Assembly: GCA_963663545.1 (NCBI GenBank) | Contig: OY760505.1 | Coordinates: 352,001-416,000 of the forward strand | Reading direction: 5' to 3' | Length of the DNA stretch: 64,000 nt | DNA from: Candidatus Delongbacteria bacterium | GTDB taxonomy: Bacteria; CAIWAD01 | Shown here: one piece after another, positions 9,915 through 35,690 of the stretch | Position numbering within the stretch: the first letter of the stretch is position 1 | How the letters are laid out: the number at the start of each line of letters is the position of its first letter | The notes under the pieces: generated by a model | Database searches by the model: none | Told to the model about the DNA's origin: nothing | What the model saw: only the letters and a program-made list of their open reading frames with translations | Made by a program: the position numbers and the translations under genes

Positions 9915-9924
9915 ACCGCGCCCC

Positions 9925-11837: not shown

Positions 11838-11870
11838 AAAACCCCCGACGGCACACGGTGCCATCGGGGG
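11838..11870 (-). terminator. Rho-independent terminator closing the FGE array
   Basis: Minus strand CCCCCGATGGCAC-CGT-GTGCCGTCGGGGG followed by TTTTGTT. Confidence 0.8.
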
Positions 11871-11913
11871 CAAGAATCGTTCTCTCAAGAACCAAGGGGA
11901 CAAAACCCAAGGG

Positions 11914-13128
11914 TCAAAACACCGTGCGGGCGGCGCGGAAACCCACGCTGCCGGACGTGTACGTCGGGTAGTTGTCGATGTGGGGCGCACACCGAACGTA
12001 CGCGGCATCGTTGTACCAGCCGCCACCCCGAAGCACACGGGTGGAGCCGCCTGTAATTCCGTATGGGTCAGATTGAGTGGAGCTGCTGTAGCTCCCATAC
12101 CAATCACCGCACCACTCCCAGACATTGCCCGCCAGGTCGTAGAAACCACGACCCGTCGCAGGATAACTGCCCACAGGGGTGGACCAGCCCACACAGTAGT
12201 TGTAGTTCAACCGCTCGCAGGTCGGCAACTCACTACCCCAGGGGTACTCTCTCTCATCGTCCCACTGGGCGGCGTACTCCCACTCCGCCTCCGTGGGTAG
12301 GCGGTAGCCCTGGGCGAGATAGGGATCATGGCTGGCGCTTTGATTCCAGTTGCCCTGGTAGAATGCTGGCAGACCTTCCATCAGACTGCGCCAGTCGCAG
12401 TAGCAGGCGGCACCGCACCAGCTGACTTCGATCGCCGGGTGATCGGCCGGGTCGTAGCCGTCCGGGTAGGCAAAGCCGGGTCCCCAGGTGCCATTGTTGT
12501 ACGTACGCGCCACCAGGTAGAACTGCTGGGTGCCCGTGTTAAAGGCGATCTCGCAGTAGTTGGTGTCATCCAGATCGAACAGCTCTACCCCGTAGGCCTG
12601 CACGCTGCTGCTGCTGGCGCTCACCAGGCCCTGGCCGAGCGCCCACTGCAGGGCGTCCATGTACTCCGCGTTGGTCACTTCGTGGGCGTCTAGGTAGAAG
12701 TCGTGGGTCAGGTGTACCGTGTGTTCGGGTGTGATTACACCAGCCTGCCCCATCATGAAGCTGCCGGCGGGAACGAGCACCATGTCCTCCGGAGCCATTG
12801 CTTCCGCATCAACACGCACCACCGCATTCTCGTGATACACACTGCCCAGCCAGGCCTGCAGGTTGATGCTGGCGAAGTGTTCTCCGACGAGCATCTCGCC
12901 GAAGTCGCCCCCAAGGTACGGGTCGGGAACGGCCGTGAAGCTCACGCCTCCGTCCAGGGAGAGCAGCAGGCTGATGTTCGCGTCCTGGTCCGCCAGCCGG
13001 TAGTGCACCTGCAGCCAGCCGGGCGTGTTGCTGTCCTGGTAAAAACTTACCTCAGACACCGTCTGCGCCGCCACGAAACCTGCCAGCAGCAGCGTCCACA
13101 GCAGGGCGATCATTGTACTCCTGTTCAT
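11914..13128 (-). CDS. Secreted Ig-like + FGE-sulfatase (C-type-lectin fold) protein, copy A1
   Basis: Signal peptide, EVTN, RLPTEAEWEYAA, YPWG, DLAGNVWEWC, RGG.W and GFR motifs. Lacks the catalytic CxxxxC of true FGE. Confidence 0.9.
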   Translation of the reverse strand: MNRSTMIALLWTLLLAGFVAAQTVSEVSFYQDSNTPGWLQVHYRLADQDANISLLLSLDGGVSFTAVPDPYLGGDFGEMLVGEHFASINLQAWLGSVYHENAVVRVDAEAMAPEDMVLVPAGSFMMGQAGVITPEHTVHLTHDFYLDAHEVTNAEYMDALQWALGQGLVSASSSSVQAYGVELFDLDDTNYCEIAFNTGTQQFYLVARTYNNGTWGPGFAYPDGYDPADHPAIEVSWCGAACYCDWRSLMEGLPAFYQGNWNQSASHDPYLAQGYRLPTEAEWEYAAQWDDEREYPWGSELPTCERLNYNYCVGWSTPVGSYPATGRGFYDLAGNVWEWCGDWYGSYSSSTQSDPYGITGGSTRVLRGGGWYNDAAYVRCAPHIDNYPTYTSGSVGFRAARTVF

Positions 13129-13137
13129 CTTCCCCCC

Positions 13138-13812
13138 CTACTTCAGCAAAGTGATTTTGTGCTGGGCGACACAATCACCCGCCTGCAGACGTACGATGTA
13201 GATGCCGCTGGCCAGCGCGCTTCCGATAAAGAGCGCCTGGTGCTCGCCGCTGTTCTGCAGGCCGTGATACAAGTCCGCCACCCTCTGTCCACGCAGGTTG
13301 TAAACGCAAAGGGAAGTCTCCTCCGTCTGCGCCAGCACATAGTGGATCACCGTGCCGGGGTTGAAGGGATTGGGGTGTGCGCCCAGCAGCGCAAAACTGG
13401 CTGGCTGCTCATCGGCGGAAGCAACGGCCTCTTCGATCACCTCGAACTCCGTCGACCAGAGCTCGCCTACATTGCCGCAGGCGTCCTGTACGTGAAAGTG
13501 AAACTGGTAGAAGCCCAGCTCCAGCTCGCAGGGCCAGTCGAAGTTGGCGCCGTAGCCCAGGGTCGTGTGCATGGGAACGCTGAGGCCAGCGCCCTCGGCA
13601 GTAATCGTGACCAGCGGCGCTTGCGCGCTCTGATCCGTCACACTGTATTCGACATAGATATCGGTGCCTTGGACGATCTGCGCGTCCAGCACGCTGTCCA
13701 GCGAAACCTGCGGCGCGACGGTGTCAATGACGCCGGGTGCGCTGTCGGCATAGCTGGCAAAAAGGGACGGGCAAGCGAGAAGGCTCGCCAGCACCAGAGT
13801 GCGGTAGTACAT
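13138..13812 (-). CDS. Secreted Ig-like protein with T9SS/FlgD-like CTD, partner B1
   Basis: Signal peptide, IDTVAPQV, FHVQDACGN and PNPFNP...VYNLRGQRV...LASGIY...LLK. Confidence 0.85.
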   Translation of the reverse strand: MYYRTLVLASLLACPSLFASYADSAPGVIDTVAPQVSLDSVLDAQIVQGTDIYVEYSVTDQSAQAPLVTITAEGAGLSVPMHTTLGYGANFDWPCELELGFYQFHFHVQDACGNVGELWSTEFEVIEEAVASADEQPASFALLGAHPNPFNPGTVIHYVLAQTEETSLCVYNLRGQRVADLYHGLQNSGEHQALFIGSALASGIYIVRLQAGDCVAQHKITLLK

Positions 13813-13907
13813 ACTCTCTCCTCGAACCTGGGGTGAATCCCTGGCACACGGTGTTGTGCAGTGCTTTGTTGCTCCTGGGAATGGATGATTCTGCTATAAC
13901 TGTCCGA

Positions 13908-13922
13908 GCAAGCCGTATGCCA
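13908..13922 (-). promoter_or_regulatory. Sigma-54 -24/-12 promoter for B1-A1
   Basis: Minus strand TGGCATA-CGGC-TTGC with exact GG-N10-GC spacing. Confidence 0.75.
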
Positions 13923-14161
13923 ACGGAGCATTATCGTTTACGGGCGCTAAGTGTTTGTTCCTTGCTTTAATATTTCCTGGGTGTGTGGGCGTGGAGCGCG
14001 CGCTGGTGCCGGATCTGGTACAATCTCCCCGACAGTCCAGACACAACAGCGCAGCTGTAGCCGATGCCCGGGCAACCATCGCAGCTCCCACAGAGCGCAA
14101 CGGCAAAGGCTCGGCCAGAAGTTGTTGCTTCCATCAGGCGTGCGCGACTGCCGGACAGAGG

Positions 14162-14191
14162 CAAGCGGCCCGTCGGCTGACGGGTCGCTTG
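14162..14191 (-). terminator. Hairpin downstream of A2
   Basis: CAAGCGGCCCGTC-GGCT-GACGGGTCGCTTG; homologous to hairpins at 16466 and 18776. Confidence 0.65.
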
Positions 14192-14229
14192 ATTTTTCTT
14201 GCGGGCCATGCCCGGCATGTGATACAAGA

Positions 14230-15468
14230 TCAGGGATTGGCGGTACGGCAGACGCGGAAGCCCACGTGGCCGCTCGTGCGCGACGGGGAGTAGTGGCCGT
14301 CGCGATACGCACACCGGACGTACTCGGCAGCGTGGTTCCAGCTGCCACCCCGAATCACGCGGTAGGAGCTGCTCGATATTCCGTATGGATTCGACTGTGC
14401 CGAACTGCTATAGTTGCCATACCAATCACCGCACCACTCCCCGACATTGCCCGCCAGGTCATAAAACCCGCGGCCAGATGGCGGATAGCTGCCTACGGGC
14501 GAGGTCCAGCCCACGCAGTAGCTGCTGCCGTTGTAGTAGTTCAGCAACGCGCAGTCGGGTGGTTCATTACCCCAGGGATAGCTGCGTTCGTCGTTCCACT
14601 GTGCCGCGTACTCCCACTCGGCCTCCGTGGGCAGGCGATAGCCCTGCGCCGTGTATGGATCATGGCTGGCCGACTGATTCCAGTTGCCCTGGTAGAATGC
14701 CGGCAGACCCTCCATCAAACTGCGCCAGTCGCAATAGCAGGCTGCCCCGTACCAGCTCACTTCCTTCACCGGGTGATCGGCCGGGTCATAGCCGCCGGGG
14801 TAGGCAAAGCCAGGACCCGAGAAGCCGCTGGTGTACGAGCGTGCCACCAGATAGAACTGCTGGGTATTGGTGTTGAAGCCGATCTCGCAAAAGCTCGTGG
14901 CATACAGGTCAAGCAGCTCTACCCCGTAGGCCTGCACGCTGCTGCTGGTTACGCTAACCAGCCCCTGGTTGAACGCCCACTGCATCGCGGCCAGATACTC
15001 GGCGTTGGTCACTTCATGGGTATCCAGGTAAAAATCTTGCGTCAGCGTGACTGTGTGTTCGGGTGTGGCCACATCAGAATCAGACTCGCCCATCACGAAG
15101 CTTCCGGCGGGAACGAGGATCATGCTCACCAGAGCCGCCGCTTCCGCATCAACACGCACCACCGCATTCTCGTGATACACGCTGCCCAGCCAGGCCTGCA
15201 GGTTGATGCTGGCGAAGTGTTCGCCGACGAGCATCTCGCCGAAGTCGCCCCCGAGGTACTGGTCGGGAACGGCCGTGAAGCTCACGCCGCCGTCCAGGGA
15301 GAGCAGCAGGCTGATATTCGCATCCTGCTCTGCCAGCGTGTAATGCACCGTCACTAGCCCGCTGCCGTCCTGCGCCTGAGCAAAGCTCACATCTGACACC
15401 GTTTGCGCCGCAGCAAAGCCTGCCAGCAATAGCGTCCACAGCAGGGCGATCATTGTATTTCGATTCAT
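14230..15468 (-). CDS. Secreted Ig-like + FGE-sulfatase protein, copy A2
   Basis: Paralogue of A1 with the same motifs. Confidence 0.9.
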   Translation of the reverse strand: MNRNTMIALLWTLLLAGFAAAQTVSDVSFAQAQDGSGLVTVHYTLAEQDANISLLLSLDGGVSFTAVPDQYLGGDFGEMLVGEHFASINLQAWLGSVYHENAVVRVDAEAAALVSMILVPAGSFVMGESDSDVATPEHTVTLTQDFYLDTHEVTNAEYLAAMQWAFNQGLVSVTSSSVQAYGVELLDLYATSFCEIGFNTNTQQFYLVARSYTSGFSGPGFAYPGGYDPADHPVKEVSWYGAACYCDWRSLMEGLPAFYQGNWNQSASHDPYTAQGYRLPTEAEWEYAAQWNDERSYPWGNEPPDCALLNYYNGSSYCVGWTSPVGSYPPSGRGFYDLAGNVGEWCGDWYGNYSSSAQSNPYGISSSSYRVIRGGSWNHAAEYVRCAYRDGHYSPSRTSGHVGFRVCRTANP

Positions 15469-15477
15469 GCTTTCCCC

Positions 15478-16152
15478 CTACTTCAGCAAAGTGATTTTCT
15501 GCTGGGCCACGCGCTCGCCCGCCTGCAGACGTACGATGTAGATGCCGCTGGCCAGCGCGCTGCCGTCAAAGAGCGCCTGGTGCTCGCCGCTGTCCTGCAG
15601 GCCGTGGTACAATTCCGCCACACGCTGACCGCGCAGGTTGTAGACCTCGAGCGAAGCCTCGGCGGTCTGCGCCAGTGCGTAGCGAATCACCGTGCCGGGG
15701 TTGAAGGGGTTGGGATGCGCGCCCAACAGCGCAAAGCTGGCCGGCTGCTCATCGGCGGAAGCAACGGCCTCTTCGATCACCTCGAACTCCGTCGACCAGA
15801 GCTCGCCTACATTGCCGCAGGCGTCCTGTACGTGAAAGTGAAACTGGTAGATGCCCAGCTCTAGCTCACAGGGCCAGTTGAAGTTGGCGCCGTAGCCCAG
15901 GGTTGTGTGCATGGGAACGCTGAGGCCAGCGCCCTCGGCTGTAATTGTGACCAGCGGCGCTTGCGCGCTCTGGTCTGTCACGCTGTACTCAACGTAGACG
16001 TCGGTGCCGTAGACGATCTGCGCGTCCAGCACGCTGTCCAGCGAAACCTGTGGCGCAACGGTGTCAATGACGCCGGGTGCGCTGTCGGCATAGCTGGCAA
16101 AAAGGGACGGGCAGGCGAGAAGGCTCGCCAGCACCAAAGTGCGGTAGTACAT
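15478..16152 (-). CDS. Secreted Ig-like + CTD partner B2
   Basis: Near-identical to B1, 224 aa from ATG 16152. Confidence 0.85.
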   Translation of the reverse strand: MYYRTLVLASLLACPSLFASYADSAPGVIDTVAPQVSLDSVLDAQIVYGTDVYVEYSVTDQSAQAPLVTITAEGAGLSVPMHTTLGYGANFNWPCELELGIYQFHFHVQDACGNVGELWSTEFEVIEEAVASADEQPASFALLGAHPNPFNPGTVIRYALAQTAEASLEVYNLRGQRVAELYHGLQDSGEHQALFDGSALASGIYIVRLQAGERVAQQKITLLK

Positions 16153-16250
16153 ACTCTCTCCTCGAATCCGTGCGAATCCCTCACAGTGGCGCTGCGGCAG
16201 GATTCTGTGTTTGCTGAAAACGAAATCTGATTTTGCTGCTACGCTTGATT

Positions 16251-16265
16251 GCAAGCTTCATACCA
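16251..16265 (-). promoter_or_regulatory. Sigma-54 promoter for B2-A2
   Basis: Minus strand TGGTATG-AAGC-TTGC. Confidence 0.7.
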
Positions 16266-16460
16266 ATTCCTGCAATGCGTGCCGGAATTGGCAACTGTTA
16301 TAATTCCAAGTAGATGCTTCGCTAATTCGGTGTTGCAGAAATGCAAGTGTGCCGGATACGCGACAGAAGTACAGAACAGCGCGAACACTATTACGCCTGC
16401 GGCGGGAATGGGACACGGCTTTGGAGGGTGGACCGATTCAGGTGCCTTGTCTGTGCACAC

Positions 16461-16493
16461 AAAGAAAGCGACCCGCCGACTAACGGGTCGCTT
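16461..16493 (-). terminator. Rho-independent terminator downstream of A3
   Basis: Minus strand AAGCGACCCG...CGGGTCGCTT followed by TCTTT. Confidence 0.7.
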
Positions 16494-16532
16494 GATTTTC
16501 CTTGCGGGCCATGCCCGGCATGTGATACAAGA

Positions 16533-17753
16533 TCAGGGATTGGCCGTACGGCAGACGCGGAAGCCCACTTGGTAGCTCATTCCATTCGGGCTGTTGCCAT
16601 TGCGGTACGCACACCGGACGTACGTGGCAGAGCTGCTCCAGGCTCCACCTCGACGCACGCGAGCATTAATGCCATCAATTCCGTATGGATTGGATTGAGG
16701 GGAGCTGCTGTAGCTTCCAAACCAATCTCCGCACCACTCATAGAGATTGCCCGCCATGTCGCAGAAGCCAAGGTCTGTAGCCGGATAACTGCCCACCGGG
16801 GTGGTCCAGGCCACACAGTTGTTGTAGTTCAACCGCTCGCAGATCGGCAAGTCATTGCCCCAGGGGTATTCTCTATTATCGTCCCACTGGGCGGCGTACT
16901 CCCACTCTGCCTCCGTGGGTAGGCGGTAGCCCAGGGCCAGATAAGGATCATGGCTCAGGTCTTGATTCCAGTTGCCCTGGTAGAAGGCGGGTAGGCCATC
17001 CATCAGGCTGCGCCAGTCGCAATAGCAGGCGGCGCCGAACCAGCTGACTTCCTTCACCGGGTGATTAGCCGGGTCGTAGCCGTCGGGATAGGCAACGCCG
17101 GGCCCCCATAAGCCACCGCTCGTGCGCGCAACCAGATAGAACTGCTGGATGCTGGCATCGAAGGCAATCTCGCAGTAGTCGGTAGCGTTCAGGTCCAGCA
17201 GCTGCTTACCATAGGCCTGCACGCTGCTGCTGCTGGCGGTCACCAGGCCCTGGTTGTACGCCCACTGCAGCGCGGCCAGGTACTCGGCATTGGTCACCTC
17301 GCAGCGTCCCAGGTAGAAGTCGTTCGTTAGTGTGACCTGATGCTCAGGTGATGAAAAATATATGCCCTCCTGCCCCATCATGTAGCTGCCGGCGGGAACG
17401 AGGATCATGCTCACCAGAGCCGCCGCTTCCGCATCAACACGCACCACCGCATTCTCGTGATACACGCTGCCCAGCCAGGCCTGCAGGTTGATGCTGGCGA
17501 AGTGTTCTCCGACGAGCATCTCGCCGAAGTCGCCCCCAAGGTACTGGTCGGGAACGGCCGTGAAGCTCACGCCTCCGTCCAGGGAGAGCAGCAGGCTGAT
17601 GTTCGCGTCCTGGTCCGCCAGCCGGTAGTGCACCTGTAGCCAGCCGGGTGTGGTACTGTCCTGATAAAAGCCCACTTCCGACACGGTTTGCGCCATCGTG
17701 ACACACGCCATCAGCAGTCCGAGCAGCAGGGCGATGCAGGTAGTCTTCTTCAT
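16533..17753 (-). CDS. Secreted Ig-like + FGE-sulfatase protein, copy A3
   Basis: Paralogue of A1 and A2. Confidence 0.9.
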   Translation of the reverse strand: MKKTTCIALLLGLLMACVTMAQTVSEVGFYQDSTTPGWLQVHYRLADQDANISLLLSLDGGVSFTAVPDQYLGGDFGEMLVGEHFASINLQAWLGSVYHENAVVRVDAEAAALVSMILVPAGSYMMGQEGIYFSSPEHQVTLTNDFYLGRCEVTNAEYLAALQWAYNQGLVTASSSSVQAYGKQLLDLNATDYCEIAFDASIQQFYLVARTSGGLWGPGVAYPDGYDPANHPVKEVSWFGAACYCDWRSLMDGLPAFYQGNWNQDLSHDPYLALGYRLPTEAEWEYAAQWDDNREYPWGNDLPICERLNYNNCVAWTTPVGSYPATDLGFCDMAGNLYEWCGDWFGSYSSSPQSNPYGIDGINARVRRGGAWSSSATYVRCAYRNGNSPNGMSYQVGFRVCRTANP

Positions 17754-17766
17754 TTCTCTTCCCCCC

Positions 17767-18441
17767 CTACTTCAGCAAAGTGATTTTGTGCTGGGCCACG
17801 CGCTCGCCCGCCTGCAGCCGTACGATGTAGATGCCGCTGGCCAGCGCGCTGCCGTCGAAAAAGACCTGGTGCTCGCCGCTGTCCTGCAGGCCGTGATACA
17901 AGTCCGCCACCCGCTGTCCACGCAGGTTGTAGACGCAGAGGGAAGTCTCCTCCGTCTGCGCCAGCGCATAGTGGATTACCGTGCCTGGGTTGAAGGGGTT
18001 GGGATGTGCTCCCAACAGCGCAAAACTGGCTGGCTGCTCATCGGCGGAAGCAACGGCCTCTTCGATCACCTCGAACTCTGTCGACCACGTGTCACAGAAG
18101 TTGCCGCAGGCGTCCTGTACGTGAAAGTGAAACTGGTAAATGCCTAGCTCCAGCTCGCAGGGCCAGTTGAAGTTGGCGCCGTAGCCCAGGGTTGTGTGCA
18201 TGGGAACGCTGAGGCCAGCGCCCTCGGCAGTAATTGTGACCAGCGGCGCTTGCGCGCTCTGATCCGTCACGCTGTACTCAACGTAGACGTCGGTGCCTTG
18301 GACGAGCTGCGCGTCCAGCACGCTGTCCAGCGAAACCTGCGGTGCGACGGTGTCAATGACGCCGGGTGCGCTGTCGGCATAGCTGGCAAAAAGGGACGGG
18401 CAGGCGAGAAGGCAAGCAAGCATCAACGTGCGAACAGTCAT
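17767..18441 (-). CDS. Secreted Ig-like + CTD partner B3
   Basis: Near-identical to B1, 224 aa from ATG 18441 with RBS GAGGAG. Confidence 0.85.
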   Translation of the reverse strand: MTVRTLMLACLLACPSLFASYADSAPGVIDTVAPQVSLDSVLDAQLVQGTDVYVEYSVTDQSAQAPLVTITAEGAGLSVPMHTTLGYGANFNWPCELELGIYQFHFHVQDACGNFCDTWSTEFEVIEEAVASADEQPASFALLGAHPNPFNPGTVIHYALAQTEETSLCVYNLRGQRVADLYHGLQDSGEHQVFFDGSALASGIYIVRLQAGERVAQHKITLLK

Positions 18442-18535
18442 GATCACTCCTCGATTCCGCACAGTCTTACACCTAGCTGTAGGCTGCGGTGAATGCTGTT
18501 GTAGGTTATAGATCGATTTTGCTGAAGCGCAGAGC

Positions 18536-18550
18536 GCAAATGATGTGCCA
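18536..18550 (-). promoter_or_regulatory. Sigma-54 promoter for B3-A3
   Basis: Minus strand TGGCACA-TCAT-TTGC. Confidence 0.78.
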
Positions 18551-18849
18551 TTTTCGTCACACACCTTCGCGTTTGAACAATTGTTCAAATTTCAAGCAGA
18601 TAGCAACCAGAGAATTGAGGAAGAAAAGGCCTCGTGTGCCGGATTTTCTACAGAATTAGGCTCAGACTGAACAATATTTCGCGAACCTTTCCATTGCTTG
18701 GTGGATATCGAGCCAGAATGCCGAAGCTCCATCCATGTACGCACAACGGGCACTTCTACTCGTGCACAGAGCAAGGCGACCCGCCAGCTGACGGGTCGCA
18801 GAAGGTTCGAATTCCAAAACATGAAGGCAGCCAACTGTATCCGGTCACG

Positions 18850-19003
18850 GCTGGAAGCCCCTCCCTCAGGCTTAGCCAGTCGCAATAACAGGCGGCGCCG
18901 TGCCAGCGGACTTCCTTCACCGGGTGAGAGGTGCTTCCAGAGCGCGGGTGAGCCCCGAAGCCAACAGCAGAAGCAGAGCAAACAGTGTTGTGAGCTTCCT
19001 CAT
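18850..19003 (-). pseudogene. Internally deleted remnant of an 'ALEAP'-type FGE gene
   Basis: ATG 19003 (RBS GAGGAG) gives MRKLTTLFALLLLLASGLTRALEAP, joined out of frame to the mid-FGE fragment HPVKEVRWHGAACYCDWLSLREGLPA. Confidence 0.8.
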
Positions 19004-19017
19004 GGTCTCCTCTCAAG

Positions 19018-20220
19018 TCAGGGGTTGACAGTTCGGGCGGCGCGAAAACCCACTCCGCTGCTCGCGTACAAGGGGTCGCTGTTGCGTCGATGCGCACACT
19101 GGACGTTTGTGTCATCGCCGGTCCAGCAGCCACCCCGAATCACTCGAGAGGGGCTACCAGCAATTCCGTATGGATTGGTTTGGTTTGAGCTGCTATAGCT
19201 GCCATACCCATCACCGCACCACTCCCGGATGTTCCCCGCGAGATCTGAAAAACCACGTCCCGTCAGCGGATAGTTGCCAACCGGGGAGGTCCAGCCTATG
19301 CAGTAGCTGCCGCCGTCGTGGTAATTCAGCAATGCGCAGGTGGGGGATTCATTTCCCCAGGGGTAGCTACGTTCATCGTCCCACTGCGCCGCATATTCCC
19401 ATTCAGCCTCCGTCGGCAAACGGTAGCCCTGCGCCAGATAGGGATCGTGGCTGGCGCTTTGATCCCAGTTGCCCTGATAGAACGCGGGCAAGCCCTCGCG
19501 CAGGCTACGCCAGTCGCAGTAACACGCGGCCCCGTACCAGCTGACTTCCTTCACCGGGTGATCGGCCGGGTCGTAGCCGCCGGGGTAGGCGAATCCAGGC
19601 CCCCAGCTACCACTGTTGTATGAGCGCGCCACCAGATAGAACTGCTGTGTACTCGTGTTGAATGCGATCTCGCAGTAGTTAGTGGCATCCAGATTGAGCA
19701 GCTCCACACCGTAGGCCTGTACGCTGCTGCTGTCAGCAGTCACCAGGTCCTGCCCTAGAGCCCACTGCAAGGCTTCCATGTACTGCTGGTTGGTCACCTC
19801 ATGTGCGTCCAGGTAGAAGTCGTAGGTCAGGTGTACCGTGTGCTCCGGCGTGGCCACACCAGCCTGTCCCATCGTGAAGCTACCGGCGGGTACGAACACC
19901 ATGTCGCCTAACTCGCCGATAGCTACAACATTGAAGCTGCCGAATCGAGACGGCTGAAACAGCGAGTCCCACCCCGTAGGCAGGGCGAATTGGCAGCTAG
20001 TTGTATCGGTCCAGGCCAGCAGCGAGTCGGGGCCCGTCCACTGGGTTCTCCCCCGAACCTGATAGGAGACCGCCCCTGCTACGGAAATCCAGTCCAGCCT
20101 GACGCAAGTAGTGTCGCCGTCACACGCGGCAGTGATGGAGACCTGCGGAGCGTCCAGCGCAAAAACAGCCACCAGCGGGATCAGCCACACAGCAGCCATG
20201 ACAAGCACATTCCTCATCAT
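19018..20220 (-). CDS. Secreted FN3-like + FGE-sulfatase protein, copy A4
   Basis: ATG 20220, ALDAPQVSI...LDWISVAGAVSYQV N-domain and the FGE motifs. Confidence 0.88.
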   Translation of the reverse strand: MMRNVLVMAAVWLIPLVAVFALDAPQVSITAACDGDTTCVRLDWISVAGAVSYQVRGRTQWTGPDSLLAWTDTTSCQFALPTGWDSLFQPSRFGSFNVVAIGELGDMVFVPAGSFTMGQAGVATPEHTVHLTYDFYLDAHEVTNQQYMEALQWALGQDLVTADSSSVQAYGVELLNLDATNYCEIAFNTSTQQFYLVARSYNSGSWGPGFAYPGGYDPADHPVKEVSWYGAACYCDWRSLREGLPAFYQGNWDQSASHDPYLAQGYRLPTEAEWEYAAQWDDERSYPWGNESPTCALLNYHDGGSYCIGWTSPVGNYPLTGRGFSDLAGNIREWCGDGYGSYSSSNQTNPYGIAGSPSRVIRGGCWTGDDTNVQCAHRRNSDPLYASSGVGFRAARTVNP

Positions 20221-20899: not shown

Positions 20900-22039
20900 C
20901 TAATCGACGGTACGCACGCAGCGAAAACCGCAGTCGCTGTACGCGCTCGTAGGCGTTTCGTTGTCGCGGTACGCACAGCGGGCGTAGCTGGCATTGTCGT
21001 TCCAATCTCCCCCGCGCAGCGCACGAGCCGTGCCGCTCGCATTTCCGTATGGATTAGTCTGAGTCGAGCTGCTGTAGTCCCCATACCAATCGCCGCACCA
21101 CTCCCAGACATTGCCCGCCAGATCGTAAAACCCACGTCCCGTCGCCGGATAACTGCCCACCGGGGTGGTCCAACCCACACAGTTGTTGTAGTTCTGCCGT
21201 TCGCAGGAAGGGGATTCATTGCCCCAGGGGTAGCTACGCTCATCGTCCCATTGCGCGGCGTACTCCCACTCCGCTTCCGTCGGTAGACGATAGCCCTGTG
21301 CCATGTAGGGATCGTGGCTCGCGTCAATATTCCAGTTGCCCTGGTAGAAGGCGGGCAAGCCTTCCCTCAGGCTGCGCCAATCGCAGTAACACGCGGCTCC
21401 GTACCAAGTGACCTCGATCACCGGGTGTTGCTCGCTCCCCGCATCCACGCTGAACTGGGACCCGGAGTAGGAGATCTCGCAATCAATATCATCCAGGTCC
21501 AGCAGCTCCAGTCCGTAAGCCTGCACGCTGCTGCTGCTGGCAGTGACCAATCCCTGGTCGTACGCCCACTGCAGGGCCTCTACGTATTCCTGGTTGCTCA
21601 CCTCGTACTGTCCCAGGTAGAAGTCGTGGCTCAGGGTCACGGTGTGTTCCGGCTCGGCCACGCCCACCTGTCCCATGACGAACTCACCGGCAGGCACGAG
21701 CACCAGCGGCATCTCCTCCACCGTCGTCACCGCGCGCACGGAAAAGAGCCGCGCCACGTTGGGGCGTACGCGACCGACCTGCAGCATGGGCACGCGCAGA
21801 CTGTACTCGCAGTTGGTGGTCGTGGTCAGCAGCGAGTCCGTCTGCCAGGCGGCGTTGCGCGGGTCGCGGTGGTAGAGCTCGTAATACTCAGCGCCGCTGA
21901 CGCTGGGCCAGGAAAGCTGCACCTGCACGCAATCCAGATCCGGGTTGTACTGGGTGCTCAGGCTGAGCTGGGGCGTCTCCAGAGCGTGCGCGAGCCCGGC
22001 GGTCAGCAGCAGGGCAAACAAGGTGATACGTCGCAGCAT
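20900..22039 (-). CDS. Secreted FN3-like + FGE-sulfatase protein, copy A5
   Basis: ALETPQLSL...LSWPSVSGAEYYELY N-domain and the FGE motifs; shorter internal insert. Confidence 0.88.
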   Translation of the reverse strand: MLRRITLFALLLTAGLAHALETPQLSLSTQYNPDLDCVQVQLSWPSVSGAEYYELYHRDPRNAAWQTDSLLTTTTNCEYSLRVPMLQVGRVRPNVARLFSVRAVTTVEEMPLVLVPAGEFVMGQVGVAEPEHTVTLSHDFYLGQYEVSNQEYVEALQWAYDQGLVTASSSSVQAYGLELLDLDDIDCEISYSGSQFSVDAGSEQHPVIEVTWYGAACYCDWRSLREGLPAFYQGNWNIDASHDPYMAQGYRLPTEAEWEYAAQWDDERSYPWGNESPSCERQNYNNCVGWTTPVGSYPATGRGFYDLAGNVWEWCGDWYGDYSSSTQTNPYGNASGTARALRGGDWNDNASYARCAYRDNETPTSAYSDCGFRCVRTVD

Positions 22040-22056
22040 GATGGATCCTTTTGAGT

Positions 22057-23262
22057 TCAGGGGTTGGCGGTGCGACAGACGCGGAAGCCCATGCGGCTGA
22101 ACGCGACCGACGGGGCAGCGAAATGGCGACTTGCGCAGAGCAGGTACGACGCGTTGTTACCCCAGCTGCTGTCCCGGCTCACACGGAGGGAGCCGCTTGG
22201 GGGCCCCGTCGGATTGCTCACGCTATCGCTGCTGTAGCTGCCAAACCAATCGCCGCACCATTCGGAGACATTACCGCCCAGGTCGTAGAAACCAAGGCCC
22301 GTCGCTGGATAGCCGCCTACCGGAGTAGTCCACCCCACGCAGAAGCTACTGCCGAGAAAGCAGTTCACCACCTCACAACTGGGGGACTGATCGCCCCAAG
22401 GGTAAGTACGCTCGTCGTTGAACTGGGCCGCATACTCCCACTCAGCCTCTGTGGGCAGACGGTAGCCCTGAGCCAGATAGGGATCGTGGCTGGCGCTTTG
22501 ATTCCAGTTGCCCTGGTAGAAAGCTGGCAAGCCCTCCCTCATACTGCGCCAGTCGCAGTAGCAAGCGGCCCCGTACCAGCTGACGTCCTTCACCGGGTGA
22601 TGGGCAGGGTCGTAGCCCTCGGGGTAGGCAAAACCTGGGCCGAAGGTGCCAGTGTTGGTGGTGCGTGGTACTAGAGTGAACTGTTGAAGGCTTGAGTCGA
22701 AGGCAATCTCGCAGGACTCGACATCACCAATGGCGAGCAGCCCCGCGCCATCAGCCTCGACTCTCGTGTCGGTCACCGTTACCAGGCCCTGATCGTAGGC
22801 CCACTGCAGGGCCTCCATGTACTCCTGGTTGGTCACCTCGTAGCGTCCCAAGTAAAAGTCTTGCGTCAGGGTCGCCGTGTGTTCCGGCTCGGACACGCCC
22901 ACCTGCCCCATGAGGAAGCTGCCCGCAGGTACGAGCACCAGCGGGGACAGCACCGCCCGCACGGAAAAAAGCCGCGCCACGTTGGGGCGCACGCGGCCGA
23001 TCTGAATCATGGGCACGCGCAGGCTATACGCGCAGTTGGTGGTCGTGGTCAGCAGCGAGTCCGTCTGCCAGGCAGCGTTGCGCGGGTCGCGGTAGTAGAC
23101 TTCGTAAACCTCGGCGCCGCTGACGCTGGGCCAGGAAAGCTGCACCTGCACACAATCCAGTTCAGGGTTGTACTGGGTGCTCAGGCTGAGCTGGGGTGCT
23201 TCCAGCGCGTGCGCGAGCCCGGCGGCCAGCAGCAGGGCAAACATTGTGATGCGGTGCGTCAT
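22057..23262 (-). CDS. Secreted FN3-like + FGE-sulfatase protein, copy A6
   Basis: ATG 23262; N-domain nearly identical to A5; FGE motifs. Confidence 0.88.
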   Translation of the reverse strand: MTHRITMFALLLAAGLAHALEAPQLSLSTQYNPELDCVQVQLSWPSVSGAEVYEVYYRDPRNAAWQTDSLLTTTTNCAYSLRVPMIQIGRVRPNVARLFSVRAVLSPLVLVPAGSFLMGQVGVSEPEHTATLTQDFYLGRYEVTNQEYMEALQWAYDQGLVTVTDTRVEADGAGLLAIGDVESCEIAFDSSLQQFTLVPRTTNTGTFGPGFAYPEGYDPAHHPVKDVSWYGAACYCDWRSMREGLPAFYQGNWNQSASHDPYLAQGYRLPTEAEWEYAAQFNDERTYPWGDQSPSCEVVNCFLGSSFCVGWTTPVGGYPATGLGFYDLGGNVSEWCGDWFGSYSSDSVSNPTGPPSGSLRVSRDSSWGNNASYLLCASRHFAAPSVAFSRMGFRVCRTANP

Positions 23263-23396
23263 GGTGGATCCTTGGCCGTGGAACACCTCTGGACACGAGT
23301 GAGCGCGCCACGTAGCTACCACCGCGCGCTGGCAATCGGACGATGTCGTGCGTGCAGGTGCATTCGTGGATTCTGCTCCATTTTTCTTGTTGTGCT

Positions 23397-23411
23397 GCAA
23401 GCTTCGCACCA
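23397..23411 (-). promoter_or_regulatory. Sigma-54 promoter for A6-A5
   Basis: Minus strand TGGTGCG-AAGC-TTGC. Confidence 0.65.
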
Positions 23412-23577
23412 AAGCTGCAACGAGCGCGGCCTTGCTCGTATGTTCTATAATTTCAATTCATGTCACTTCAGCCTGGAACCTGTCTGCCCGCCGGATTCTC
23501 GACATAGATAACAGGAATAGAACAGTATGAATCCAACGCAGACATCGGCAGCCTGGGGCGCGAGACGCGGGGTCCCT

Positions 23578-23745
23578 TCCCCTCCCAATCGGTATCCGAC
23601 TCGCCCCGAGTCGGCGGGATCGCTATCGGTATCGGTATCGTTCCCCCTTCCCCCCCCAATCGGTATCATTCTTCCTTCTCCTGTTCCTTCGCGTAGATTC
23701 CAGCAACAAGCAGGTTTCCGAATCCGACTCCGAAATCGACCTGCC
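23578..23745. repeat. Intergenic REP-like cluster, same family as 11525-11700
   Basis: CCCCTCCCAATCGGTATC, CCGACTCG-CCC-CGAGTCGG at 23596-23614 and ATCGGT iterations. Confidence 0.7.
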
Positions 23746-23845
23746 CCCGTGACGAGCTGGGTCGGCACCGATCGAGATGAGGAAGTGGATGAGACCACGC
23801 ATCCCGTGATCTTGAGAGCGAGCCCTGTTCGCTTCGATCCTCCCG

Positions 23846-25090
23846 CTACGGGGCCACCGTCCGACAGATACGGAAGCCGAGGTCCTCGCTCGCGTTCCCT
23901 GGCAGGGCATTGTAGCGAAAAGCGCAACTCACCGTACCTGCATGGGAGTACGACGAATGGCATCCTCCGCGAGCCACCCGTGCACCCCCCTGACTTGGGC
24001 CTGCGGGGTTGATCGCGTAGTTCGCATTGGGATAGGCGGCAAACCAGTCATTGCACCACTCCCAGACGTTGCCTGCTAAATCATGCAAGCCCAGCGCCGC
24101 GTCGCCGGCGGGATAGCTGCCTACGGGCGCAGTCCAGCGCGCGCAGTTACCGTAGTTTGCCTGCAGGCAAGGTGTGGGTACTGTGTCACCCCATGGATAG
24201 AGTCGCCTATCGTTGTATTGCGCTGCGTATTCCCATTCGGCCTCCGTCGGCAGGCGGTACCCTTCGGCAGCGTATGGATTACCGGGGTCCGGTATTTGTG
24301 ACCATTGGCCATTGTAATAGGGAGTGAGTCCCTCCAACTGACTGCGCCAGTCGCAATAGCAGGCAGCACCGTACCAGGTCACGTGCATGACGGGGTGCGT
24401 GGCAGGATCGTACCCGTTCGGATAAGCCGCCCCCGGACCTCGGCCCTGCGCGCTGAAAGTACCCTCATGAAGGACAAACTGCGGGGAATCGTAGCGGATC
24501 TCGCAATTATCCACCCCTGTGTACCATACCAAAAGGATCTGCCCATACTGCACAACCCTCCCACCACTGGCATTTGGTATCACCAGCCCCTGCTCCAGCG
24601 CCCACTGCAAAGCCTCCAGGTATTCCTCGTTGGTCACTTCGCTACGCCCCAGATAGAAGTATTCCGTCAAGTACACGGCGTGCACGGGCTCGGCCACACC
24701 GGTACGCCCCATGACAAAATAGGCGGCCGGCGGCATCAGCACCATGCCCTCGGGAGCCGTGTGTTCTGCCAACACGCGCACCACGGCATTCGTGCAGTAC
24801 AGACTGCCCAGCCAGGCTTGTATGTTGATGGCAGCGGAGCCATTCCCCGCAGCCACCTCGCCCACATCGCCGCTGGTGTACTCTGCTGGTACGAGCGTGA
24901 AAGAGCTTCCGCCATCCAGCGAGAGCTCAAGGCTGACGTTGGCGTTCAAATCCGGCATCCAGTAGTGCACTTGTAGCCAGCCGGGTGCATTTGCATCCTG
25001 GGAGAAGCTCACGGACATCACGGTCTGCGCGGCGGCAATCCCCGCCAGCTGGAGCGTCCATAGCAGAGCGATCGCGGTAGTTCGGTTCAT
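23846..25090 (-). CDS. Secreted Ig-like + FGE-sulfatase protein, copy A7 (diverged)
   Basis: A1-type N-domain (PGWLQVHY...LSLDGG) and the FGE motifs. Confidence 0.88.
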   Translation of the reverse strand: MNRTTAIALLWTLQLAGIAAAQTVMSVSFSQDANAPGWLQVHYWMPDLNANVSLELSLDGGSSFTLVPAEYTSGDVGEVAAGNGSAAINIQAWLGSLYCTNAVVRVLAEHTAPEGMVLMPPAAYFVMGRTGVAEPVHAVYLTEYFYLGRSEVTNEEYLEALQWALEQGLVIPNASGGRVVQYGQILLVWYTGVDNCEIRYDSPQFVLHEGTFSAQGRGPGAAYPNGYDPATHPVMHVTWYGAACYCDWRSQLEGLTPYYNGQWSQIPDPGNPYAAEGYRLPTEAEWEYAAQYNDRRLYPWGDTVPTPCLQANYGNCARWTAPVGSYPAGDAALGLHDLAGNVWEWCNDWFAAYPNANYAINPAGPSQGGARVARGGCHSSYSHAGTVSCAFRYNALPGNASEDLGFRICRTVAP

Positions 25091-25099
25091 GCTTCCCCC

Positions 25100-25774
25100 C
25101 TACTTCAGCAAGGTGATTTTGTGCTGGGCGACGCAATCACCCGCTTGCAGACGCACAATGTAGATGCCGCTGGCCAGCGCGCTTCCGTCAAAGAGCGCCT
25201 GGTGCTCGCCGCTGTCCTGCAGGCCGTGAACCAAATCCGCTACCCGCTGACCGCGCAGGTTGTAGACGCAGAGAGAAGCCTCCTCAGTCTGCGCCAGCGA
25301 ATAGTAGATCACCGTGCCGGGATTGAAAGGGTTTGGATGTGCGCCTGAAAGGGCAAAGCTGGCCGGTTGGTAGTCCGCAGAGGCAACGTCCTCTCCGATG
25401 ACTTCGAACTCCGTCGACCAGAGCTCGCCTGCATTGCCGCAGGCGTCCTGTACGTGGAAGTGAAACTGGTAGATACCCAGCTCCAGCTCACAGGGCCAGT
25501 TGAAGTTGGCGCCGTAGCCCATGGTTGTGTGCACGGGAACGCTGAGGCCAGCGCCCTCGGCAGTAATCGTGACCAGCGGCGCCTGAGCGCTCTGATCTGA
25601 CACGCTGTACTCGACGTACACCTGTGTGCCAACCACGATCTGCGCGTCCAGCACGCTGACCATCGTAATCTGTGGCGCGACGGTGTCAATGACGCCGGGC
25701 GCGCTGTCGGCGTAACTGGCAAACAGTGCCGGACAAGCAAACAGGGCCGTCAGCACGAAAGTGCGGCAGTGCAT
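25100..25774 (-). CDS. Secreted Ig-like + CTD partner B4
   Basis: 224-aa paralogue of B1-B3. Confidence 0.85.
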   Translation of the reverse strand: MHCRTFVLTALFACPALFASYADSAPGVIDTVAPQITMVSVLDAQIVVGTQVYVEYSVSDQSAQAPLVTITAEGAGLSVPVHTTMGYGANFNWPCELELGIYQFHFHVQDACGNAGELWSTEFEVIGEDVASADYQPASFALSGAHPNPFNPGTVIYYSLAQTEEASLCVYNLRGQRVADLVHGLQDSGEHQALFDGSALASGIYIVRLQAGDCVAQHKITLLK

Positions 25775-25872
25775 ACTCTCTCCTCAAATGCGGATGTCCT
25801 CCTGCGAGGCCTGCTGCGGGAAGATCAATTGCTTGCTGATGATGGAATCGGATTCTGCCGCGCACAGCACAT

Positions 25873-25887
25873 GCAAGCTTCGTACCA
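25873..25887 (-). promoter_or_regulatory. Sigma-54 promoter for B4-A7
   Basis: Minus strand TGGTACG-AAGC-TTGC. Confidence 0.72.
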
Positions 25888-26030
25888 AAACAGCCCAGGA
25901 GATAAGACAACCCTTAATCTCTATCTAAACAAGCAGTTCCAATGAATAGTACCGGGTGTTCACTCCGAGCCAGCAAGCACATATGTCGGATTTATAACAA
26001 GATTCTCGGCAGACTGAACAAGGCTGCAGG

Positions 26031-27252
26031 CTACTCGGCCGCTTTAGCACACGGAAGCCCAGATAGTCCTTTGCGTAGGGTGGAGAATAGCTGACCCGAT
26101 AGGCGCATTTCACGTAGGACGCAGTGGCCTTCCCAGGTACCACCCCGGAAGAAGCGGGCAGAGCCGGTGCTTGCACCGAGGGGGTCGGACGCGGCACTCG
26201 AGGGATAAACCCCATAACAGTCGCCACACCACTCAGCGATGTTACCCGCTATATCATGCAAGCCCAAGGTGCTGCCCCCACAGGATAGCTGCCCACGGGT
26301 GCTGTCCAGCCCACACACCTGGCCATGTCTGCATGGACGCACTCCACGGGTAAGTCATTGCCCCATGGATAGGTACGTTCGTTCTCTTACCGCACCGCGT
26401 ACTCCCACTCCGCTTCTGTTGGCAGTCGGTAGCCATCGGCCAGGTAGGGGTTGTGGCTGGTTGTCTGATCCCAGACTCCATAATAGAAGGGCGACAAGCC
26501 TTCTCTTTGGCTGCGCCAATCGCAGTAGCAGGCGGAACCGTACCAAGTGACATACTTCGCAGGATGTGATGCGGGATCATAACCTTCTGGATAGGCTGCC
26601 CCTGGGCCGGAGATCCCATTGACGTAGGTTCCTGCTTGTAGGAAAAACAGCTGCGAGCTGCTATTGAATTGAATCTCGCACCGATCAGCAGCAGTTCATC
26701 GATGCCCAGCAGGTCCTGTCCGTACTGGCACACGTACTCCCCATCTTCAGAAATCGTCAACAATCCCTGAACCCAGGCCCATTGCACAGCTGCCAGGTAC
26801 TCCTGATTGCTCACCTCATACTGGCCAATCAGGAAGTCATGGGTCAGGGTCACTTAGTGTTCCGGCGGAGCCACGCCATTCTGCCCCATCATGCAGCCGC
26901 CAGCAGGGATGAGAACCATGGCTGCTTCATCGATCGCCGCTCGCACGTGGAAGGTGCGCGCCAGGTTCGAGCGCACACGGCCAGGCTGGCGCCAGCGCAG
27001 GTGCAATTCAAAGCCACAGTCCGTGATTGTAGCCAGCAGGAAATCCTCCACCCAGGTAGAACTACGCGGATTGCGGTAGTAGACTTGATACTGCGTGGCA
27101 CCAGTGACGCAGGGCCACTGAAGCTGGACAAGCGCGCTATCCGTCCCCTCGATGCACTGCGCAGCAACACTTATCTGCGGAGCTTCCAGAGCACAGGCGA
27201 CTCCTGCTGTCAGCAGCAGGAGCACCCCAACCAGTTGCTTCAAGCGTGTCAT
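26031..27252 (-). pseudogene. Degraded FGE-sulfatase gene A8 (duplicate of A9)
   Basis: In-frame TAA at 26854-26856 where A9 has CAG, a frameshift near 26690 and further lesions; FGE motifs are scattered across frames. Confidence 0.85.
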
Positions 27253-27418
27253 TTCCAGCTCTTCGTTTGTTGCCCCCTCGTGTTGCCAGCAGTCCGGTCA
27301 AAGGGTTCCAAAGACCTATCGATCACTGACTTCTTGACGCCAGGTGCTGTTCTCCCAGCAGTGGCCAATCGCGGCTCACGCTATTCCCAAGGCAGAAGTT
27401 CAGGGTGCGCGCACTCGA

Positions 27419-28651
27419 TCATGGCGTGGCCAGCCGGCAGATACGAAAGCCATGGCGGGGGTGCCAACTTGACGGGCCTTGAGCTTCGCGATAGGCACAG
27501 CGCAAGTAGAAGGTGCTGCAGAGCCAGTCCCCGCCTCGCACCAAGCGATTGAGGCCAGCATCCGAACCGCAAGGATCCACTTGGGCGTCGCTGCTATAGA
27601 CAGCAAACCGGTCGTTGCACCACTCCCCCACATTGCCCGCCATGTCCAGCAAACCCAAAGCGTTCGCACCTGTCGGGTAGCTGCCCACGGGTGTCGTCCA
27701 CCCCACACAATAGCCATTTAGACGAAAGTTCGCCCCACTAAGATCCGGTGTATCCTCGCCCCAAGGGTAAGTACGTTCGTCACTGTATTGCGCCGCATAT
27801 TCCCATTCTGCTTCCGTCGGCAGGCGATAACCTAGGGCCAAGTATGGATTGTGACCGGCAGACTGATCCCAGACTCCACTGTAGAAAGGTGTTAATCCCA
27901 CCATTTGGCTGCGCCAGTCGCAGTAGCAGGCGGCGCCGTACCAGGTGACTGACTTCACAGGATGCGGTGCCGGATCGTAGCCTCCAGGATAGGCTGCCCC
28001 CGGCCCATAGATATCATCTGCGTAGGTCCCTGCATAAAGGAAAAACAACTGTGTGTCGACGTCGAATCGAATTTCGCACCAGTCAGAAATGTCATCGTTG
28101 ATGTTCAGGAGGTTCTGGCCGTACTGACATACAAAGTTCCCATACGCGGAGATCGTCAACAACCCCCGATCCCAGGCCCACTGTAAAGCTTCCAAGTACT
28201 CCTGGTTGGTCACCTCGTACTGGCCCAAGTAGAAGTTGTGGGTCAAGGTTACCTGGTGCTCGGGTGTGGATACGCCGTTCTGGCCCATGACGAACTGCCC
28301 GGCGGGAACAAGAACCATGGCTGCTTCATCGATCGCCGCTCGCACGTTGAAGGTGCGCGCCAAGCTCGGGCGCACACGGCCAAGCTGGCGCCAGCGCAGG
28401 CGCAATTCATAGTCACAGTCCGTGGTCGTAGCCAGCAGAGAATCCTCCACCCAAGTAGAACTACGCGGATTGCGGTAGTAAACTTGATACTGCGTGGCAC
28501 CGCTGACGCAGGGCCACTGAAGCTGGACAAGCACGCTGTCCGTCCCCTCGATGCACTGCGCAGTAACACTTACCTGCGGAGCTTCCAGAGCACAGGCAAC
28601 TCCTGCAGTCAGCAGCAGGATCACCCCGACCAGTTGCTTCAAGCATGTCAT
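27419..28651 (-). CDS. Secreted FN3-like + FGE-sulfatase protein, copy A9
   Basis: ATG 28651, ALEAPQVSV N-domain and the FGE motifs. Confidence 0.88.
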   Translation of the reverse strand: MTCLKQLVGVILLLTAGVACALEAPQVSVTAQCIEGTDSVLVQLQWPCVSGATQYQVYYRNPRSSTWVEDSLLATTTDCDYELRLRWRQLGRVRPSLARTFNVRAAIDEAAMVLVPAGQFVMGQNGVSTPEHQVTLTHNFYLGQYEVTNQEYLEALQWAWDRGLLTISAYGNFVCQYGQNLLNINDDISDWCEIRFDVDTQLFFLYAGTYADDIYGPGAAYPGGYDPAPHPVKSVTWYGAACYCDWRSQMVGLTPFYSGVWDQSAGHNPYLALGYRLPTEAEWEYAAQYSDERTYPWGEDTPDLSGANFRLNGYCVGWTTPVGSYPTGANALGLLDMAGNVGEWCNDRFAVYSSDAQVDPCGSDAGLNRLVRGGDWLCSTFYLRCAYREAQGPSSWHPRHGFRICRLATP

Positions 28652-28743
28652 ATCCAGTCCTTTGTTTGTTGACCTCTCGTGTTGCCGGGCGCTTGGAGCC
28701 ACAGAAAGTGAACACGCCCTCTCCTGCAATGAAAAATGATTCA

Positions 28744-28758
28744 GCAGTTTTTATGCCA
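28744..28758 (-). promoter_or_regulatory. Sigma-54 promoter for A9(-A8)
   Basis: Minus strand TGGCATA-AAAA-CTGC. Confidence 0.65.
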
Positions 28759-35565: not shown

Positions 35566-35690
35566 GTGACATATAAGAAAAGGCCGGATCGCGCCGGCCA
35601 TTTCTTTTGTGTCACGATGATCATGCTAATGTGGCTTTTGGGATAGGCCACTCTCCGATACCGATCCGACTCTGAAGGAGTCGGCACCGA
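35566..35690. repeat. 125-bp direct repeat, copy 1
   Basis: Matches 40971-41095 with 3 mismatches by manual alignment. Confidence 0.92.

Follow-up and report, generated by a model that had tools for sequence, protein, structure and literature searches.

A tandem array of lectin-fold genes with copy-specific C-terminal tips, partly linked to genes for type IX-sorted partner proteins, in Candidatus Delongbacteria

We describe here a tandem array of genes of the formylglycine-generating enzyme (FGE)-sulfatase family on contig OY760505.1 of a Candidatus Delongbacteria bacterium, within a stretch of 64,000 nucleotides (contig positions 352,001 to 416,000; hereafter the window). The array carries eight intact genes, A1-A7 and A9, whose products have a C-type-lectin (CLec) fold and do not have the pair of catalytic cysteines of FGE. 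Variation between the copies is concentrated in a short C-terminal tip, no parts of a diversity-generating retroelement (DGR) were found in the window, and four of the A genes each lie next to a gene for a partner protein, B. The evidence tips slightly towards a hard-wired repertoire of lectin-fold binders, part of which would probably be displayed through B, a protein with a sorting domain of the type IX secretion system (T9SS). In such a repertoire the tips would bind ligands, the A and B proteins would bind each other, as a structural model predicts, and the complex would reach the cell surface.

The array spans positions 11,914-28,651 of the window, and all real genes in it lie on the minus strand. 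Coordinates are window positions, the start codons were chosen in the analysis, and the names A1-A7 and A9 were kept from a first-pass annotation of the same DNA. With the chosen starts the intact genes have 379-414 codons. All eight products match the FGE-sulfatase family PF03781, with E-values of 1.3e-44 to 8.1e-53 and 153-180 bits against a gathering score of 23.3. Their N-termini, as judged by reading them, are of the Sec type in 8/8 copies, with a basic start, a hydrophobic run and an AxA-like site. Two kinds of N-terminal module, mutually unrelated and all-beta, precede the FGE domain. The type-I module, which is Ig-like, was found in A1 (11914-13128; PF03781 E 2e-46), A2 (14230-15468; E 8.1e-53), A3 (16533-17753; E 4.2e-47) and A7 (23846-25090; E 1.5e-46). 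The type-II module, which is fibronectin type III (FN3)-like and begins LEAP or LDAP, was found in A4 (19018-20217; E 7e-45), A5 (20900-22039; E 1.7e-50), A6 (22057-23265; E 1.3e-44), A9 (27419-28651; E 9.2e-48) and the pseudogene A8. A5 starts 17 nt past A6, and the FGE/CLec domains of A7 and A9 are distant ones. In the AlphaFold2 models of A2 and A5 (predicted local distance difference test, pLDDT, of 91.0 and 91.3, respectively), the N-modules are beta sandwiches at residues 24-110 and 26-104, and Pfam fn3 precedes the FGE domain in one listed relative. The eight intact genes, one pseudogene and one remnant in tandem that the first-pass annotation had reported were recovered with PF03781 and tblastn, and its signal peptides in all copies and its assignment of the two module types also held, but its inventory lacked the four 224-aa B genes. 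A tblastn-type search found no further FGE-domain copies elsewhere in the window.

The model of A2 was compared with solved structures using Foldseek. Human and bacterial FGEs were matched at E ~1e-17 with 27-29% identity and a probability of 1.00, and TvpA (2y3c), a DGR variable protein of Treponema, at E 1.7e-16 with a target TM score of 0.72, an rmsd of 4.9 and a probability of 1.00; across the FGE and TvpA matches the target TM score was 0.70-0.72. PorK, PvdO and EgtB followed after TvpA, and the Foldseek and sequence matches also include ToxD and CalU17. By phmmer, TvpA was found at E 7.2e-20. The CLec fold shared with TvpA, which had been proposed earlier, is supported by the A2 model.

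The tip consists of the 26-28 residues between the motifs RGG and GFR, and it is different in every copy (A1, 11944-12021; A2, 14263-14343; A3, 16566-16643; A4, 19051-19128; A5, 20930-21007; A6, 22090-22167; A7, 23879-23962; A9, 27452-27529). A2 has one extra codon in it and A7 two. Within the tip a framework of W, Y, R-C-A, R, P and GFR is kept, and the chains end 7-10 residues past GFR. Sequence entropy among the paralogues peaks at the tip, and the same segment is also the most variable one across 76 homologues from other organisms. Three real DGR targets (loci L026, L033 and L051) were aligned with the eight paralogues; a further one, L038, was dropped, its repeat copies being of unequal length. 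Columns in which at least two of the three targets have template-adenine codons were taken as DGR-equivalent (n=22) and compared with the other columns (n=69). Hypervariable columns made up 16/22 of the former and 7/69 of the latter (Fisher 4e-8), and the mean number of distinct residues among the paralogues was 4.9 versus 2.4 (Mann-Whitney 5e-8). Hence, the array is variable where retroelements are made to diversify their targets. A published account describes the DGR-mutated residues of TvpA as exposed residues of the lectin fold (PMC5758913). In the A proteins a conserved scaffold bears the segment that in DGR-served relatives is the mutated ligand-binding tip.

Nei-Gojobori counts gave a ratio of non-synonymous to synonymous substitution rates (dN/dS) of 0.11-0.29 for the scaffold. 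At the tip the ratio was 1.11-3.62 in 10/10 pairs among A1-A5, and pairs with A6, A7 or A9 gave 0.30-1.15 or were saturated. In a 2x2 test, tip and scaffold differed at p<0.01 in 10 of the 15 A1-A6 pairs. An even spread of variation over the fold, together with a C-terminal dN/dS well below 1, was not what these counts revealed.

The B gene has 224 codons and lies 9 nt upstream of each type-I A copy. Its four copies, all on the minus strand, are B1 (13138-13812, which stops 9 nt upstream of A1), B2 (15478-16152; 93% identical to B1), B3 (17767-18441) and B7 (25100-25774). In this protein a signal peptide and a single Ig-like domain are combined with a C-terminal sorting domain of T9SS type A. 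The latter scored 27.4 (B1) and 29.9 (B7) bits with PF18962 (Por_Secre_tail; cut-off 27) and 37.2 bits (B1) with TIGR04183 (cut-off 23), and the sorting domains of B2 and B3 are 87-100% identical to those of B1 and B7. B was found upstream of 4/4 type-I and 0/5 type-II copies, A4 for example having no partner gene (Fisher 0.008, the units being duplicates and not nine independent events). The B copies are 87-93% identical to one another, and their dN/dS of 0.08-0.25, at dS 0.2-0.7, reveals purifying selection. Terminator-like hairpins with T-runs occur ~40 nt past the stops of A1 (hairpin at 11841-11871), A2 and A3, so that, judged from the DNA, each B-A pair looks like one transcription unit. 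The same hairpins had been considered as DGR-type hairpins beside the tip, a candidate that was rejected when they were read as terminators. A scan for sigma-70-type promoters returned 1 site versus 5.7 expected.

A word-indexed search with B gave 14 matches, which beyond its own copies and one near-identical fragment covered the sorting domain only. When the Ig domain of B was used in an exhaustive HMMER search, 31 proteins were matched at E<=0.001. Most of them are very large proteins (1,000-6,900 residues) in which 4-18 repeats were matched, and hence the domain is an Ig repeat of the adhesin type. One further match is a 224-aa protein with the layout of B and 31% identity. The best score in an atlas search for B was 0.80, which is a lead only. 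Residues 11-14 of B, L-(L/F)-A-C, are a possible lipoprotein box (13771-13782 in B1, with equivalents in B2, B3 and B7) and stand upstream of an AxA-like LFA|S site; the choice of cleavage site would change the mature N-terminus that was modelled on A.

Since B travels only with the type-I module, the complex of A2 (residues 22-412) with the Ig domain of B2 (residues 21-140) was modelled. The complex scored 0.69, and the best of three controls 0.01. A score of 0.69 was reached by 116/157 solved complexes and 2/215 mismatched pairs, a calibration that is only rough since our own alignments were used. The runs agreed in at least 98% of the contacts, with a partner pLDDT of at least 82. In the modelled interface A2 contributes residues 22-43, 57-61 and 90-108, all within the Ig module, and B contributes residues 21-33, 61 and 111-115. 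B makes contact mainly through residues 21-33, the first ones of the mature protein, which do not vary between the B copies. The arrangement looks like edge-strand addition, in which the N-terminal strand of B would be added to the Ig module of A, and the model supports binding between the two proteins. B, strongly conserved and putatively co-transcribed with each of the four type-I copies, could then act as a T9SS-exported, surface-attached handle, and A as an interchangeable head.

The repeated units U1-U3 share 85-100% identity in B and the Ig module, 70-90% in the lectin domain and 53-77% in the tip, and the spacers upstream of them are unrelated. The 3′ untranslated regions and terminator hairpins of A2 and A3 (14163-14229 and 16466-16532) are 92% identical, and a third copy of the hairpin lies at 18766-18799, downstream of the remnant; hence whole units, including terminators, were duplicated. 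In a quick maximum-likelihood tree of the FGE domain without the tip (84 sequences), A1-A6 formed one clade (SH-aLRT 95), which includes one foreign sequence, and A7 and A9 fell among homologues of other organisms. A4 carries a type-II module on an FGE domain that groups with those of A1 and A2, and A7 carries a type-I module and has a B gene, yet its FGE domain is distant. Since module type and domain lineage are discordant in these two copies, modules must have been exchanged between copies, and the modular character claimed by the first-pass annotation is visible in the swap of A4. The pseudogene A8 (26042-27252, minus strand), of the type-II, A9-like kind, was located by tblastn with A9, to which it is 80% identical across residues 1-186. 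Its reading is interrupted by two in-frame stops and shifts frame near 26690, with a second breakdown in the C-terminal part, and its two open reading frame (ORF) pieces gave no Pfam match. The remnant (18819-19003, minus strand), directly downstream of A4 and detected by tblastn with A4 and A5, is a type-II signal-peptide ORF (28 aa) joined by a deletion to a 33-50-aa fragment of the domain core around YGAACYCDW. The evolution by gene birth and death that had been proposed fits the near-identical units, the pseudogene, the remnant, and the A1-A6 clade with A7 and A9 elsewhere.

Each A protein is a single-member cluster in the protein collections searched. The closer relatives are metagenome proteins with 47-66% identity, whose source names include Candidatus Delongbacteria and Eisenbacteria. 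Among the closest outside relatives, P0004, P0005 and P0010 are chains in which a complete FGE-type domain occurs twice in tandem, with a variable tip on each. P0010 combines its two domains with a T9SS tail in one chain, and P0165 also has a T9SS sorting domain on the same chain as an A-like domain. A wider sample of relatives was formed by the best 80 loci of a genome scan, which are distant (top identity 37%). In 7/80 of these listed loci at least two domain genes lie within 10 kb, three being the maximum, so an array of this size is unusual among the listed relatives. The tips would have originated by tandem duplication in place (A1-A6) and by the retention of older paralogues (A7 and A9), with the exchange of N-modules and with point substitutions and small indels, at tip sites under little or no purifying selection, as further sources. 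Copies would be lost by decay, as in A8 and the remnant. The diversity would be hard-wired and not made on demand, eight different tips being encoded side by side.

Several observations weigh against a hard-wired repertoire of displayed binders. i) The A proteins have no T9SS signal for leaving the periplasm, and the A2-B2 score is the model's own confidence, obtained with a shallow B alignment (5 rows). ii) Variability is also raised at residues ~181-220 and 301-320 (A2 numbering). The first-pass annotation had described a constant scaffold with hypervariable last ~40 aa; this description held for the 26-28-residue segment that is unique to each copy, but not for these two regions. iii) In phylogenetically independent pairs, the ratio of non-synonymous to synonymous differences per site (pN/pS) at the 22 DGR-equivalent columns was 0.91-1.12, which is not above neutral (binomial p 0.36-0.69). 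Positive selection at the tip, for which the pairwise ratios above 1 had spoken, was not upheld, and relaxation fits equally; from the dN/dS check there remains a tip ratio far above that of the scaffold, with a value of ~1 in independent pairs, as relaxed constraint also gives. iv) Adenine occupies 1/29 invariant columns of the tip versus 65/308 of the scaffold (p 0.025), and silent divergence among A1-A5 is lower at the tip (pS 0.11-0.43) than in the scaffold (pS 0.38-0.67). Over the eight copies, C-ending codons amount to 57% versus 41% (p 0.002) and the residues K/E/Q/M/W to 7% versus 18% (p 0.002); neither difference is significant for A1-A5. v) The search for DGR parts covers the 64-kb window of a 3.72-Mb contig.

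The nucleotide features under iv) bear on the alternative that the tips are remote targets of a DGR located elsewhere in the genome, whose adenine-error cDNA overwrites them, such that the differences between copies reflect recent mutagenic homing. We consider this unlikely. In this fold DGRs write at precisely this tip, its invariant columns are almost free of adenine, the low silent divergence of A1-A5 is what homing from one template would give, and the mild codon and residue biases point the same way. Likewise, variable columns holding some adenine are more frequent in the tip (40/55) than in the scaffold (131/235; p 0.023), which was counted for a DGR imprint. One report describes remote targets at distances above 100 kb, with as many as seven for one DGR (PMC5758913), and another describes Treponema denticola isolates that have neither reverse transcriptase (RT) nor template repeat (TR) and still keep the target genes (PMC4891356). 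However, neither an RT nor a TR was found in the 64 kb. RVT_1 matched 0/40 ORFs of the window, three DGR reverse transcriptases gave a best tblastn E of 0.59 against the window and their profile no match at E<=10, a scan of the window for repeats with adenine mismatches detected no pair of TR and variable repeat (VR), and the only sequences in the window resembling a tip were other tips.

The tips themselves also argue against a remote DGR. Among A1-A5, 55/84 tip nucleotide columns are variable, so a single template would need 65% adenine. Indels are present in A2 (+1 codon) and A7 (+2), third-position C/T and C/A differences between tips are many, and the 3′ flank of the tip, where the homing signal is expected, differs between most copies and is alike only in A2, A3 and A6. 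Between the tips of A1 and A2 most changed codons differ by a single base (10 single-base, 4 double and 1 triple, counted from the alignment). The codon signature of AAC-templated mutagenesis was weak when all eight copies were taken together and did not reach significance in A1-A5 or in the two-fold C/T choice; it was set aside as not decisive. When the scan for adenine mismatches was applied to the relatives, a TR/VR pair at the gene's 3′ end was found within 10 kb in only 4/80 listed loci, with RVT_1 beside the template in 3 of these 4 (3/6 ORFs scanned). A C-terminal variable region on a CLec fold, as in DGR targets, is present in the array, while equal length, identity outside adenine positions and a shared homing signal are not, nor is there a TR in the window. 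Because indels and silent changes are also among the differences between tips, it is unlikely that one DGR wrote all of them; the tip architecture may plausibly go back to an ancient DGR.

Two side observations concern the same question. At locus L051, positions 10282-10788 hold a clean TR/VR pair with 15 mismatches, all at adenines, and no RT in 16.7 kb; either the target is far from its RT, or the RT lies beyond the contig end. Two proteins, P0123 and P0135, from one outside contig of 22,161 nt, are identical to residues 1-128 of B7 and 1-212 of A7 and then go out of frame. This contig seems to come from another, indel-ridden assembly of the same organism or of one nearly identical to it, and it is silent on tip variation because both reading frames are left before the tip.

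The second alternative is that the tip consists of unconstrained surface loops and that the paralogues drift, with no repertoire function beyond dosage or redundancy. The pN/pS of ~1 at the tip columns of independent pairs is in its favour, as are the pseudogene, the remnant and the variability of the same segment in the 76 homologues. In the same pairs, pN/pS was 0.36-0.38 for the remaining columns within the last 100 residues, and purifying selection is lifted at the tip. However, eight frames are intact, the framework of the tip is conserved, and the tip dN/dS exceeded 1 in every A1-A5 pair. Moreover, pN at the 22 tip columns is 0.45-0.56; this is near saturation and pulls the ratio towards 1, and hence diversifying selection and free drift are inseparable by these counts. 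The variable columns also match the positions chosen by DGRs, which are exposed in solved DGR proteins, according to a published account (PMC5758913). We judge drift alone to be improbable.

The third alternative holds that the A proteins belong to the SUMF1/EgtB/PvdO superfamily as enzymes working without the FGE cysteine pair, and that the variable segment tunes substrate choice. Source names of relatives include "SUMF1/EgtB/PvdO family nonheme iron enzyme", and PvdO, ToxD, CalU17 and EgtB are among the structure or sequence matches. Against this, the NCBIfam enzyme models scored far below their cut-offs (EgtB <=66.6 versus 360, PvdO <=70.6 versus 500, SenA <=63.2 versus 420). The iron ligands of EgtB are in its DinB domain, and DinB is absent here. 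Solved FGEs read GGSY-x-C-xxxx-C, and the C336S and C341S mutant chains of the human enzyme mark the cysteine pair; in the HMMER alignment of A2 H379 stands opposite the first cysteine and a 3-residue gap opposite the second. CxxxxC was found in this segment in 0/8 copies, A9 having a cysteine at the first position only, which bears out the earlier claim that the motif is lacking and that the proteins are no FGE enzymes. A ratio of ~1 over 16-22 positions would ordinarily be too high for an active site. An enzymatic role is thus very unlikely in our estimation. Least credible of all is that the A proteins represent additional copies of PorK/GldK, the lipoprotein of the T9SS ring, or of the gliding protein GldJ: GldK (TIGR03525) is the top NCBIfam match, PorK is the best sequence match among solved structures (E 7.5e-25) and the organism has T9SS cargo proteins, but GldK scored 75.4-130 bits against a cut-off of 350 in the six copies scanned (A1, A2, A4, A5, A7 and A9), over the C-terminal half only, most copies have no lipoprotein cysteine after the signal peptide as far as their sequences can be read, and a ring subunit would not be hypervariable or come in eight versions. 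We conclude that the A copies belong to the FGE-sulfatase family and have the CLec fold, but are neither FGE nor PorK/GldK, since the catalytic cysteines are absent and the curated models score far below cut-off. The annotation "formylglycine-generating enzyme family protein" is misleading for these genes.

The reading of the array as a hard-wired repertoire of binders therefore retains part of what the first-pass annotation had claimed. A modular family of non-FGE proteins stands, but the surface location is weakened by A proteins that carry Sec signals only, with a T9SS sorting domain found by Pfam in 0/8 copies; applied to eight fixed paralogues, "antibody-like" is a metaphor. A more specific version, which we regard as possible but doubtful, is a two-part display in which T9SS-exported B captures tail-less A heads by its N-terminal strand, with the germline-encoded set of tips standing in for, and maybe descended from, DGR diversification. 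The fold, the tip and the variability of the tip are known from DGR variable proteins. New, in the literature searched, are the tandem array read as a fixed library and the predicted division into a lectin head and a T9SS handle; literature searches, with subscription journals outside their coverage, returned neither a comparable tandem array lacking a DGR nor a split T9SS cargo. DGRs are the textbook route to varying this lectin fold, and a fixed array of many versions would be a second one, allowing a natural comparison between "generate on demand" and "keep a library". The pairing of head and handle, if true, would let a protein without a T9SS signal use the T9SS.

The window has a G+C content of ~60%, and Rfam and tRNA scans of it gave no match. 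Phase variation was considered and rejected: the inverted repeats in the seven intergenic stretches are short and unrelated, and no gene for a recombinase is present. On the same strand, the array is followed directly downstream (1333-10914, minus) by a Bat/MoxR-vWA operon of the aerotolerance type, with MoxR AAA_3, DUF58, two vWA/BatA proteins, BatD, and TPR and SPOR proteins. A published study links MoxR-vWA systems to FGE-type domains, the domain there being fused to the vWA protein (PMC7159879); the adjacency observed here may be chance. At the upstream edge of the array (29006-30118, plus) there is a lone N6/N4 adenine DNA methyltransferase gene with no restriction partner seen, in a place where the G+C content dips to 0.563. 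Three more T9SS type-A cargo genes, one for a lamin-tail-domain protein and two for FG-GAP repeat proteins (840 and 894 aa), are located at 33695-40977 (minus), and their sorting domains are 47-54% identical to that of B; the G+C content is 0.51-0.53 at 36-40 kb. A pseudouridine synthase (S4 and PseudoU_synth_2) is encoded at 43754-45424 (minus), with a long low-complexity C-terminal tail that matches a glutenin model.

When the array is compared with known systems, the A proteins are like FGE (SUMF1) in their match to PF03781, their 27-29% identity and their Foldseek E-value, but both copper-binding catalytic cysteines are missing and the cysteine loop is 3 residues shorter. With PorK/GldK they share the FGE-sulfatase-type C-terminal half, but the A genes are multi-copy, hypervariable and mostly without a lipobox, and they score far below the family cut-off. 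B resembles T9SS type-A cargo in having a sorting domain above the curated cut-offs, and relatives of A (P0010 and P0165) carry such a domain in the same chain; unlike in known cargo, sorting domain and lectin head are here on separate polypeptides whose association is predicted. To our knowledge, no case has been described in which these two parts are split over two polypeptides. The array is also similar to DGR cassettes with multiple targets, which are tandem CLec-type genes differing in the C-terminal variable region. One report describes eight tandem targets for a Stenotrophomonas DGR (PMC5758913). Those cassettes hold an RT and a TR and show adenine-specific mismatches, whereas the scan of the array finds none. 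There is also a likeness in kind with TvpA and other DGR variable proteins: the fold is shared, the FGE activity motif is absent, the variable residues precede GFR, and several paralogues are present per genome. In contrast to TvpA-type proteins, there is here no TR or RT in the window, the tips are distinguished by indels and by changes outside adenine positions, and the genes form one tandem array with two kinds of N-module, half of them with a T9SS partner gene.

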